DNA from: a virus
Taxonomy: Duplodnaviria; Heunggongvirae; Uroviricota; Caudoviricetes
Virus record (IMG/VR): IMGVR_UViG_2537561709_000015
Length of the DNA: 1,783 nt
Reading direction: 5' to 3' (one strand)
Part shown: one piece after another, positions 1 through 1,783 of the stretch
How positions within the stretch are numbered: the stretch's first letter is position 1
How the letters are laid out: every line of letters starts with the position of its first letter
Program-made: the position numbers and the translations under genes
Notes under the pieces: generated by a model
Databases searched by the model: none
The model's input: only the letters and a program-made list of their open reading frames with translations
Told to the model about the DNA's origin: nothing

Positions 1-261
1 CAGTACGTGGAAAACGGCGTCAAAAAGAACTTCCTGCCGGACAACACGCTGGTCCTGGGTAACACCAACAATAAAGGGCTGGTGGCCTATGGTGCGATAA
101 TGGATCAGGAAGCGGTAAGAACGGGCGCAACACAAAACATGTTTTACCCGAAAAACTGGATTGAGGACGGCGATCCGGCGATTGAGTACGTGCAGACACA
201 CAGTGCACCGCAGCCGGTACCGGCAGATATTCGCAAATTTGTTACCGTCAAAATTGGTTAA
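1..261 (+). CDS. E: Major capsid protein, C-terminal part (lambda gpE-like); 5'-truncated by the window edge, stop TAA at 259..261
   Basis: Frame +1 from position 1 translates QYVENGVKKNFLPDNTLVLGNT...YPKNWIEDGDPA...SAP..., which matches my recollection of the lambda gpE C-terminus (YVENGVKKNFLPDNTMVLGNT...YPKNWVTTGDPA...SAPLM...). The ORF track starts at an internal GTG at 7, but the homology extends to position 1, so the gene continues upstream of the window. Confidence 0.85.
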   Translation, partial: QYVENGVKKNFLPDNTLVLGNTNNKGLVAYGAIMDQEAVRTGATQNMFYPKNWIEDGDPAIEYVQTHSAPQPVPADIRKFVTVKIG

Positions 262-273
262 CGGGGGGATTCT

Positions 274-609
274 ATGGACACTCCATACATTGAGTTATTT
301 GCAGGCAGTCAGCAGGTATCCACGACGTTGGTACATTTTGCCGCTGATGCTGGCGTTATTCAGGAATTTACCCCGCTGATGCTGGCAGACAATGGCGAGT
401 TTAAGCCGTGGGATGGTCAGGAATCTGGCAAGGCTGTTTATCTGACCTCGTACCCTGTGGACACGTCAAAGCAGAAATCAGCACAGTGTTACAAGACGGG
501 GATATTCAATATTGCCGCCGTTAACTGGCCTGAGAGCGTCGACACCGATGCGAAAAAATGCGCCGCCTTTGCGGGTTCCGGCGTATCCGTTCAGCCGCTG
601 GCCCGATAA
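274..609 (+). CDS. D: Head decoration protein (lambda gpD-like), 111 aa
   Basis: Translation contains TPLMLADNGEFKPWDG...CYKTGIFNIAAVNWPESVDTDAKKCAAFAGSGVSV, resembling recalled lambda gpD (TPLMLDTSSRKLVAWDG...[36 protein letters not shown]). Length is close to gpD at about 110 aa. A GGGGGA Shine-Dalgarno sits at 264..269, and the gene starts 12 nt after the upstream stop. Confidence 0.8.
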   Translation: MDTPYIELFAGSQQVSTTLVHFAADAGVIQEFTPLMLADNGEFKPWDGQESGKAVYLTSYPVDTSKQKSAQCYKTGIFNIAAVNWPESVDTDAKKCAAFAGSGVSVQPLAR

Positions 610-621
610 GCAGGGGGAACG

Positions 622-1035
622 ATGGCAACGAATGAAAGCATCATGACGCTACCGCTGGCGAGTAAATTTAAAGTCGAAGCGCGGGCAATGGCTGACAGAG
701 GTTTATCAACCTATGAGGCCGTATATCAACTAAACAAACTGGAAGAGCAGGACAAGCCGTGCGCTGATGCGATTATGGCGCTTCATGAGCATAAAGACTA
801 TCAGCCGCTGTTGCGTGCAATGGCAAACGTGCCTTGTATCGATGTTGGTACGGCTAAAAGCATCCTTAGCATGACCATAGAGCAGGAACGTCCGAAGGTT
901 GCGCCGGAACTTACCGCAGCCTTTGAAAACTTTATGGACATGCACAGCCCGCAAGCCGTATCAGCTGGCATGGCATACGATGGCAGAAACCAGGGCGATG
1001 ACGGCGACATCGATCGCATACTGAAAACCATCTGA
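622..1035 (+). CDS. Hypothetical protein, 137 aa, function unknown; operonic with the capsid and decoration genes
   Basis: Intact ORF starting 12 nt after the gpD-like stop, with the same GGGGGA-type Shine-Dalgarno (613..618) as the preceding gene, and followed by a hairpin plus T-run terminator. I recognise no family. It has an acidic C-terminal segment (DGRNQGDDGDID). Confidence 0.6.
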   Translation: MATNESIMTLPLASKFKVEARAMADRGLSTYEAVYQLNKLEEQDKPCADAIMALHEHKDYQPLLRAMANVPCIDVGTAKSILSMTIEQERPKVAPELTAAFENFMDMHSPQAVSAGMAYDGRNQGDDGDIDRILKTI

Positions 1036-1040
1036 GACAA

Positions 1041-1063
1041 GGCCGGAGAAATCCGGCTTTTTT
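1041..1063 (+). terminator. Putative rho-independent terminator
   Basis: Perfect 6-bp stem GCCGGA (1042..1047) / TCCGGC (1052..1057) with a GAAA loop, followed by TTTTTT (1058..1063), starting 6 nt after the stop of the 622..1035 ORF. Confidence 0.55.
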
Positions 1064-1129
1064 ACGGGTCCTTCCTGGAATTATGGCCCGTTACGGGGCG
1101 GCGACCTCGCGGATTTTCGCTATTTATGA
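1064..1129. other. cos site core: lambda-like cosQ-side flank, cosN and the conserved right flank
   Basis: acgggtccttcctggaattatggcccgttacg-GGGCGGCGACCT-cgcggattttcgctatttatga aligns with the recalled lambda cos junction ACGGGTCCTTTCCGGTGATCCGACAGGTTACG-GGGCGGCGACCT-CGCGGGTTTTCGCTATTTATGA. By my count the left flank matches at about 22 of 32 positions, the 12-nt core at 12 of 12 and the right flank at 21 of 22. Confidence 0.8.
1096..1107. other. cosN 12-nt cohesive-end sequence GGGCGGCGACCT
   Basis: Exact match to the lambda 12-nt 5' cohesive end as I recall it, in the expected position upstream of a Nu1-like terminase gene. Confidence 0.8.
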
Positions 1130-1139
1130 GCCTTTTCAG

Positions 1140-1154
1140 GGTGGTGGTGGTGGT
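1140..1154. repeat. (GGT)5 trinucleotide tract, continuing into a G/T-rich run to about 1165
   Basis: Sequence ggtggtggtggtggt followed by tttgttgtttg, read directly from the window. Confidence 0.9.
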
Positions 1155-1201
1155 TTTGTTGTTTGATCTATCTTTATGAATGAAAAGGGAAAGATGCAAG
1201 C

Positions 1202-1239
1202 AATACACCAACCTGAAGCAGTAATTAAGTTGGTGTATT
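1202..1239. repeat. Perfect 11-bp inverted repeat AATACACCAAC (1202..1212) / GTTGGTGTATT (1229..1239) with a 16-nt spacer
   Basis: The two arms are exact reverse complements. The right arm ends 1 nt before the ATG at 1241. Confidence 0.9.
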
Positions 1240-1240
1240 A

Positions 1241-1783
1241 ATGAAATCTCATCTGATGAACAAAAAAAACATGGCGAAAAGCTGCCGTGTAAGTGCGACA
1301 GCGTTCGACAAGTGGGGAGTAACTCCCGTTGAGCGTAAAGGCCGTGAGGCGTTTTATGATGTTGCCAGCGTGATAGAAAATAGGGTTAACAATGCAATTA
1401 GCCAGCTTATAAACGACAAAGGCGAGATTGACGATGATGAACTTTTACGAGTCAGGATCAGATTACTGACAGCACAGGCAGAGGCGCAGGAACTTAAAAA
1501 CGATCGCGATCGCGGTGACGTGATTGATACTGAGTTTTGCCTGTACGCGCTTTCAAAGCTGGCGAGTCAGATTTCATCAATCATGGACAGCCTCCCGCTT
1601 ACTATGCAAAGGAGCTTCCCACAGATTACCCCCGCCATGCTGGACAGGCTTAAAAGGGAAGTGGTTAAAGCCTGTAATGCCAGTGCCAGAGTTGCCGACA
1701 ACCTCCCACAGATACTGGCTGATTACTTGAAAGAAACAACCGGAAACGTACCGGAAAAGTTGCTACAGAAGAAAGGCGAGTAA
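1241..1783 (+). CDS. nu1: Terminase small subunit (lambda Nu1-like), 180 aa; the true start may be the in-frame ATG at 1256
   Basis: Translation contains LTAQAEAQELKNDRDRGDVIDTEFCLYALSKLASQISSIMDSLPLTMQRSFP...LKREVVKACN, resembling recalled lambda Nu1 (LTRAQADAQELKNARDSAEVVETAFCTFVLSRIAGEIASILDGLPLSVQRRFP...LKRDIIKAMN). Lambda Nu1 is 181 aa, and the gene sits directly downstream of a lambda-type cos. Stop TAA at 1781..1783. Confidence 0.88.
   Translation: MKSHLMNKKNMAKSCRVSATAFDKWGVTPVERKGREAFYDVASVIENRVNNAISQLINDKGEIDDDELLRVRIRLLTAQAEAQELKNDRDRGDVIDTEFCLYALSKLASQISSIMDSLPLTMQRSFPQITPAMLDRLKREVVKACNASARVADNLPQILADYLKETTGNVPEKLLQKKGE

Follow-up and report, generated by a model that had tools for sequence, protein, structure and literature searches.

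In this study, we examined a 1,783-nt stretch of DNA from the IMG/VR virus record IMGVR_UViG_2537561709_000015 (the window), and in particular an open reading frame (ORF) of 137 codons, ORF137, at positions 622-1035. Judging from its sequence, ORF137 belongs to the Nu3-type scaffolding family, as a new free-standing member borne by a satellite. It is carried by a phage-inducible chromosomal island (PICI) of Escherichia coli O157:H7 related to EcCICFT073, and it probably serves the satellite's own gpE-like coat protein as an internal scaffold. This reading draws on its homology and gene context, on its conservation and selection, and on how its divergence follows that of the coat gene; from these observations we infer the assembly role and all of the binding partners. 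A part in capsid assembly had already been raised in a sequence-only reading of the window, and the Nu3 homology found with PHROG 53, tblastn, BLASTP, and hhalign makes it the best reading of this gene. The gene and its parts are as follows:

622-1035, plus strand: ORF137, ATG start, 137 amino acids (aa), acidic, 15.1 kDa, isoelectric point (pI) 4.9; predicted free-standing homologue of the Nu3-type scaffolding domain and orthologue of EcCICFT073 c1501
634-669 (aa 5-16), plus strand: N-terminal motif ESIMTLPLASKF, retained in all three clades of the ORF
763-873 (aa 48-84), plus strand: Nu3-type repeat of ~40 aa, ADAIMALHEHKDYQPLLRAMANVPCIDVGTAKSILSM, identified with a repeat hidden Markov model (HMM) and by BLASTP to gpC residues 416-456 and 368-403
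913-972 (aa 98-117), plus strand: tail motif TAAFENFMDMHSPQAVSAGM, common to the end of lambdoid gpC/Nu3 (TALFEHFMANHSPAAVRGG)
997-1032 (aa 126-137), plus strand: acidic stretch and invariant C-terminal peptide DDGDIDRILKTI, a candidate coat-protein-binding end

Several independent comparisons matched ORF137 residues ~48-131 to the C-terminal end of lambdoid prohead proteases. The profile PHROG 53 (head maturation protease) was matched at positions 495-567 of 583 (E 4.7e-9), tblastn against 50,697 phage records found only the final ~80 codons of 501-aa genes annotated as protease C / scaffolding domain Nu3 (E 4e-5), and BLASTP against a 501-aa gpC gave 39% identity over 83 aa (E 3e-11). An equivalent BLASTP result was obtained for c1501 and the gpC of the icd prophage that serves EcCICFT073 as its own helper, the identity of this helper being taken from the literature (PMC10111431). 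Only eight proteins were recovered by phmmer among 1.84 billion representatives, one of them a 195-aa free-standing Nu3-like protein with three repeats (E 4.5e-5), and when the ORF family was compared to three-repeat Nu3 domains with hhalign, the alignment had a probability of 96.8% (E 3e-10) and was colinear across ORF residues 5-122. Searches of Pfam, NCBIfam, and the PDB with the ORF137 sequence gave no match, no structure for the Nu3 domain was found in the PDB, and a Peptidase_S49 domain was not found in ORF137. The earlier statement that no family fits this ORF thus stands for Pfam and NCBIfam and falls for PHROGs, BLAST, and profile-profile comparison, while the label "unrecognised" gives way to a profile match to the Nu3 part of gpC. 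The link to lambda Nu3 itself is transitive, via the 501-aa gpC, because the direct similarity is not significant: the 501-aa protein and lambda gpC share 53% identity (E 8e-142), and the repeat of the 501-aa protein with the best match to ORF137 can likewise be aligned to the one lambda copy within Nu3 (E 1e-7). The 131-aa form of lambda Nu3 has a mass of 13.4 kDa and a pI of 4.5.

The 501-aa gpC has three tandem copies of the ~40-aa motif followed by the tail (TALFEHFMANHSPAAV...DGDADVKMLMAMP), and lambda gpC has one copy, located inside Nu3. An HMM built from phage Nu3 repeats alone scored 13.6-16.7 bits at aa 48-84 of ORF137, with a maximum of 7.2 among 2000 shuffled sequences, and the same segment could be aligned, weakly, to the single lambda Nu3 repeat. 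The N-terminal motif, in which I7, M8, L10, P11, L12, K15, and F16 are invariant in alignment A2, may be a degenerate first copy of the repeat: hhalign puts aa 5-45 on phage Nu3 repeat 2, with low per-column confidence and only when the full profiles are aligned. A reading with two tandem Nu3 repeats was rejected, as the N-terminal segment failed the repeat HMM and the shuffle test (343/5000 shuffles scored as well). The tail motif segment is swapped for unrelated sequence in ORF clades II and III and is therefore not essential to the family. At the C-terminus, clades I and II have I130, I133, L134, K135, T136, and I137 as invariant residues (A2), and clade III retains ILKNI.

ORF137 is a real conserved gene under purifying selection. 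PHROG 1999 covers it end to end (E 1.7e-68), and its DNA was present in 593 of 5426 complete E. coli genomes, in 591 of them at full length. Among seven ORF137 alleles with 85-100% protein identity and many synonymous changes, the median pairwise ratio of nonsynonymous to synonymous substitution rates (dN/dS) was 0.31, compared to 0.14 (coat gene) and 0.09 (decoration gene) at the same loci. We also detected rare 93-aa alleles (P0027, P0030, and P0031) without residues ~25-68, with a junction in the short repeated ARAMA / LRAMA, which suggests a deletion by recombination between the two repeat-like segments.

The gene is part of a capsid block, and the coat gene end, decoration gene, ORF137, cos, and small terminase gene of the window are all on the plus strand:

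1-261, plus strand: 3' end (last 86 codons) of the gpE-like major capsid protein gene, orthologue of c1499 (Pfam Phage_cap_E, E 3.9e-12; PHROG 29)
263-269, plus strand: G-rich ribosome-binding motif GGGGGGA of the gpD-like gene
274-609, plus strand: gpD-like head decoration gene, 111 aa, orthologue of c1500 (Pfam HDPD, E 5e-18; PHROG 49, E 1.5e-27)
613-618, plus strand: ribosome-binding motif GGGGGA of ORF137, G-rich as for the gpD-like gene
1039-1064, plus strand: hairpin and U-run, a terminator-like end of the capsid operon (arms AAGGCCGGA / TCCGGCTTT), kept in EcCICFT073
1096-1129, plus strand: cos, the 12-nt lambda-type cohesive end GGGCGGCGACCT (1096-1107) with adjacent conserved bases, from the alignment with the lambda left end and EcCICFT073
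1241-1783, plus strand: Nu1-type small terminase (TerS) gene, 180 aa (Pfam Phage_Nu1, E 3.2e-23; PHROG 57, E 8e-53)

The decoration gene ends with TAA at 607-609, and 12 nt (610-621) separate it from ORF137. The sequence-only reading had described ORF137 as co-oriented and tightly spaced in the capsid block and as the last gene before a terminator and cos, and this gap, the shared G-rich ribosome-binding motif, the hairpin with its U-run, and the lambda-type cos bear it out. The hairpin has a 9-bp stem (1039-1047 / 1052-1060) followed by the U-run and folds at -17.8 kcal/mol (z = -2.6); a simple consensus terminator scan missed it. Positions 1096-1129 agree at 33/34 sites with the lambda left end (its first 34 nt). 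The order h68-coat-decoration-ORF-hairpin-cos, in which h68 denotes a gene for a 68-aa protein (PHROG 3255; c1498), was constant in 16/16 loci examined, which vary in integrase and integration site, in replicase (RepA/AAA_25 or D5-type primase), and in packaging gene. In the island of the window, h68 (L001 13953-14159) lies directly upstream of the coat gene, with its stop and the start of the coat gene overlapping (ATGA). In all loci that reach far enough upstream, h68 precedes the coat gene, and its alleles are 66-68% identical between islands with coat proteins 93-96% identical.

ORF divergence followed coat and decoration divergence (Spearman 0.72-0.76) and did not follow that of the packaging gene, TerS or Rpp (-0.13). 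This speaks against the packaging-specificity role suggested earlier for ORF137, as does the mapping of packaging redirection and interference in EcCICFT073 to c1503 (rppA), not c1501 (PMC6739421). The same uncoupling from the packaging gene bears on whether ORF137 could be a packaging accessory like lambda gpFI or a head-tail connector. Its size (137 vs. 132 aa for FI), its position near cos, and the NCBI name "phage head-tail connector protein" of several cluster members would fit such a role. However, we found no similarity to lambda FI, FII, or W and no BLAST matches to FI, FII, and W of a phage with a 501-aa gpC, and we regard this reading as hardly credible. The analogy to gpFI drawn in the sequence-only reading came to a BLASTP alignment of 13 residues (E 0.44) and an hhalign probability of 0.5%. 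W and FII were rejected as candidates, with hhalign probabilities of 0.1% each, no BLAST match, and no Pfam or NCBIfam model. The connector name is attached in NCBI to many family members (P0002, P0004, P0006, P0007, and others), the RefSeq genome annotation being "hypothetical protein"; it may derive from "head-tail preconnector", an old term for gpC/Nu3.

The element that carries ORF137 is a satellite, a Gram-negative PICI of the EcCICFT073 type, by both gene content and layout. Window positions 48-1783 match E. coli O157:H7 chromosomes at 100% identity and lie there within an ~11 kb island between roxA and phoQ (L001 6837-17273). This island encodes a tyrosine integrase, a small AlpA-type helix-turn-helix (HTH) regulator, Icd-like genes, a RepA-type helicase, SSB, and PerC, followed by a late block with the 68-aa protein, coat (in full 351 aa, L001 14159-15214), decoration, ORF137, cos, TerS, and a 93-aa protein. 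No large terminase (TerL), portal, protease, tail, or lysis genes are annotated in it. The earlier suggestion of a satellite-type element is thereby borne out, with integrase, AlpA-type HTH, replicase, coat, decoration, cos, and TerS, yet without TerL, portal, protease, and tail genes. The O157 island is allelic to EcCICFT073, with a common roxA-phoQ integration site and layout, and has been equated with O-island 51 / CP-933C (PMC6092414; PMC3378721). ORF137 is 96% identical to EcCICFT073 c1501, which occupies the same place after c1499 and c1500 (L011), and the published cloning primers of pBAD18-c1501 flank exactly the c1501 ORF. The 2018 catalogue of PICIs lists the O157:H7 island as a PICI with c1501 orthologues, leaves the function column of c1501 empty, and places all listed orthologues in PICIs (Fillol-Salom 2018, supplementary file 1). 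No function for c1501 and no mention of a scaffold or Nu3 was found in the PICI literature that we searched. The gene is therefore already catalogued, without function.

The ORF family falls into three clades with mutual identity of about 40-47%: I (137 aa), II (134 aa), and III (115 aa). All retain the IMxL(P/M)LAxKF N-terminus, the repeat core, and the final ILK(T/N)I, and they differ in the sequence and length of the segment from the repeat to the C-terminus. Two scans of contigs representing one genome per species, one with the family alignment and one with the divergent P0040, yielded no confirmed relative; together with the short match lists of the other searches, this suggests that free-standing members are restricted to islands of E. 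coli and Shigella. The coat, decoration, ORF, and TerS proteins are each 36-48% identical to lambdoid counterparts; the satellite coat shares 43-47% identity with lambda and PhiR12 gpE, and the decoration protein 36% with lambdoid gpD. At this level of similarity, the satellite head genes look like one diverged lambda-type head set, rearranged to the order E-D-scaffold.

Several observations weigh against a scaffold dedicated to the satellite's own coat protein. Two islands, L012 and L015, have DNA 98-100% identical through h68, coat, and decoration genes, and despite this their ORF bodies are just 44% identical. The DNA identity is lost exactly at the ORF body, returns over the last ~45 nt of the ORF, the hairpin, and cos, and drops again in the packaging gene. 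The ORF body is therefore an exchangeable cassette, with only the C-terminal end locked to the coat-gene lineage. A strictly co-adapted pair of scaffold and coat would not predict such a swap of the body, although the C-terminal ~24 residues are shared. At the level of homology, the N-terminal 45 residues of ORF137 have no significant match by themselves, BLASTP gave no direct alignment of ORF137 to lambda Nu3, and hhalign of this pair reached a probability of only 5% (E 0.0076), aligned exactly on the lambda repeat. The AlphaFold2 model of ORF137 is all-helical with a disordered tail (residues 109-137 below a predicted local distance difference test score, pLDDT, of 50); its overall confidence is low (pLDDT 63), Foldseek against BFVD and the PDB returned no match at E <= 0.001, and the model is too weak for an inference of fold. 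Published genetics point the same way. EcCICFT073 with melA in place of c1498-c1501 still transduces with phi80 (PMC10460865), deletion of c1499 or c1500 alters neither transfer by the native helper nor interference, and with lambda as the helper and the module intact all packaged DNA is phage-sized (PMC6092414). The capsid module is thus dispensable in laboratory assays, and no satellite-built capsid has been seen. With regard to these assays, we considered whether the commonly used "c1501::tetA" marker disrupts c1501, which would confound the no-phenotype result, and rejected this: the primers put tetA just after the c1501 stop, leaving the gene intact.

The exchange of the ORF body also bears on a reading in which ORF137 is directed at the helper, as a Nu3 look-alike that binds helper coat, portal, or gpC and diverts or poisons helper assembly, functionally like SaPI1 CpmB or P4 Sid. 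The repeat and tail motif are common to the helper's own gpC/Nu3, including that of the EcCICFT073 helper prophage, and the body has been rapidly exchanged, giving three clades ~40% identical next to coat and decoration genes that are 82-100% identical; such turnover is consistent with an arms race or with adjustment to various helpers. However, expression of c1501 from pBAD18 did not lower lambda plaque formation, which was reduced by c1503 alone and restored by c1503 deletion (PMC6739421). Lambda is nevertheless a poor test of this reading, because its one-repeat Nu3 is distant from ORF137. The phage size of DNA packaged with lambda (PMC6092414) and the satellite's own coat and decoration genes, needless for a pure mimic, also argue against it, and we judge a helper-directed mimic unlikely.

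The replaceability of the whole c1498-c1501 block with transduction kept (PMC10460865) could likewise be explained if ORF137 were a 3'-terminal relic of a captured gpC gene, functionless and carried along with dispensable capsid genes. Some islands do have broken genes next to an intact ORF137: in L008, the decoration and TerS genes are frameshifted (2589-2988 and 3621-4162), and in L018 the coat gene is split in two (7589-8641), which shows occasional decay of the capsid block. The rare 93-aa variants with an internal deletion also fit a decaying remnant. On the other hand, the dN/dS of ~0.31 with many synonymous changes, the full length of the ORF in nearly all genomes that have it, its own ribosome-binding site and start codon, and N- and C-terminal motifs invariant across clades just 40% identical all speak against decay. 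In addition, the order E-D-ORF, as opposed to C/Nu3-D-E in phages, implies that ORF137 is not a simple truncation in place. We therefore consider a functionless remnant very improbable.

Given these observations, we favor a scaffold for the satellite's coat protein, which could work as follows. Upon helper induction, the capsid block of h68, coat, decoration, and ORF137 would be transcribed as a unit, to the hairpin before cos, and ORF137 would chaperone the satellite coat protein into procapsid shells. The known partners of lambda Nu3 are E, B, C, and Nu3 itself (PMC3224144). By analogy, the C-terminal peptide DIDRILKTI probably contacts the coat protein, and the Nu3-type repeat probably mediates self-association as well as contact with the helper portal and gpC protease. 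ORF137 would then be removed, satellite TerS and helper TerL would fill the shell at the satellite cos, and the filled shell would be decorated by the satellite gpD-like protein. ORF137 may thus be an adaptor between the satellite shell and helper machinery, and its mosaic body could reflect matching to different helpers. A bolder extension, which we put forward tentatively and with considerable doubt, is that h68, coat, decoration, and ORF137 form a working shell-only capsid kit that builds on the helper portal and protease, intermediate between classical PICIs and capsid-forming PICIs (cf-PICIs). If so, swaps of the ORF body would adapt the scaffold to one helper or another, and the satellite might gain independence from helper-supplied coat protein or evade capsid-sensing immunity, a benefit invisible to the lambda and phi80 transfer assays so far used.

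Downstream of the capsid block, the gene after cos is an exchangeable cassette on otherwise similar islands, encoding the 180-aa Nu1-type TerS, a 194-aa TerS (50% identical), or an Rpp-like protein of 144-146 aa with an N-terminal Nu1/HTH-like match only (PHROG 57, E 4e-8, residues 7-47). This slot lies at window positions 1241-1783 and at L007 3577-4017, L011 15660-16094, L012 2439-2879, and L015 7596-8180. Two inverted cosN cores flank the packaging gene, one at window positions 1096-1112 and one on the minus strand after TerS, beyond the window (L001 16911-16927); the same was seen in L005, L007, L008, and L009, and in strain PM4-5 (L009 3666-4208) the TerS gene between the two copies of cos is oppositely oriented. 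EcCICFT073 was reported to have two cosN sequences (PMC6092414), and its second must differ slightly, because our exact-match search found one there. Between cosN and the TerS start, we detected an 11-bp perfect inverted repeat, AATACACCAAC / GTTGGTGTATT (1202-1212/1229-1239), ending 2 nt before the TerS ATG, as well as a 12-nt imperfect inverted repeat (1135-1146/1206-1217) and a (GGT)n run at about 1139-1154. These repeats are candidate cosB/TerS-binding or regulatory sites.

A coat gene is present in 21/29 reference Gram-negative PICIs (PMC10111431), yet deletion of the coat or decoration gene in EcCICFT073 gave no phenotype (PMC6092414). If c1501/ORF137 is a Nu3-type scaffold, the block would be a coherent set for assembly, with coat, decoration, and scaffold proteins, rather than a stray coat gene. 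The database name "head-tail connector" should be corrected, as our comparisons give it no support. O-island 51 of E. coli O157:H7 influences expression of LEE, the locus of enterocyte effacement (PMC3378721), which lends some medical relevance to how this element is mobilised. The assignment of ORF137 does not demonstrate a new kind of system, and the systems closest to it are known ones.

Foremost among these are lambda gpNu3 and the C-terminal domain of lambdoid S49 gpC, in the 501-aa, three-repeat form of PhiR12-type phages and of CFT073 or O157 prophages. ORF137 shares with them the ~40-aa motif xxIMxLxEAxGxExxAxxLAxxPGMTVExAxxIL, the FExFMxxHSPxAV tail and acidic, hydrophobic C-terminus after the repeat, the character of a small, acidic, helical, partly disordered protein, and gene neighbours of the gpD and gpE types. 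It differs in being a stand-alone 414-bp gene that has a start codon and a ribosome-binding site of its own, instead of being nested in frame in protease gene C, and in residing in a satellite without portal, protease, and TerL. The number of repeats differs as well, with one clear and one possible degenerate copy in ORF137 compared to three in the 501-aa gpC and a single copy in lambda, and so does gene order, which is E-D-ORF in the satellite and C/Nu3-D-E in the phages.

Among satellites, the nearest counterpart is c1501 of EcCICFT073 (Fillol-Salom et al., 2018, 2019), an orthologue located after coat and decoration genes and before terminator and cos; in contrast to the O157 island, with its Nu1-type TerS, EcCICFT073 has the Rpp-like c1503 in the corresponding slot. 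Similar to these islands, cf-PICIs such as EcCIEDL933 are satellites that encode their own coat and other head-assembly proteins. However, cf-PICIs add TerL, portal, prohead protease, and head-tail adaptors, a gene set not annotated in the islands that we examined, and make their own small capsids, whereas the O157 island is limited to genes for coat, decoration, and scaffold-like proteins and TerS, and its family has no reported satellite-made capsid. Finally, SaPI1 CpmA/CpmB, P4 Sid, and the SaPIbov5 coat homologue Ccm are also satellite-encoded and act on capsid assembly. CpmB reportedly (Dearborn et al., 2017) shares its coat-binding C-terminal end with the helper scaffold, a parallel to the tail common to ORF137 and gpC/Nu3. 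Unlike what has been observed for EcCICFT073, the DNA of which is phage-sized when packaged with lambda (PMC6092414), these proteins act on the helper coat and give small capsids.

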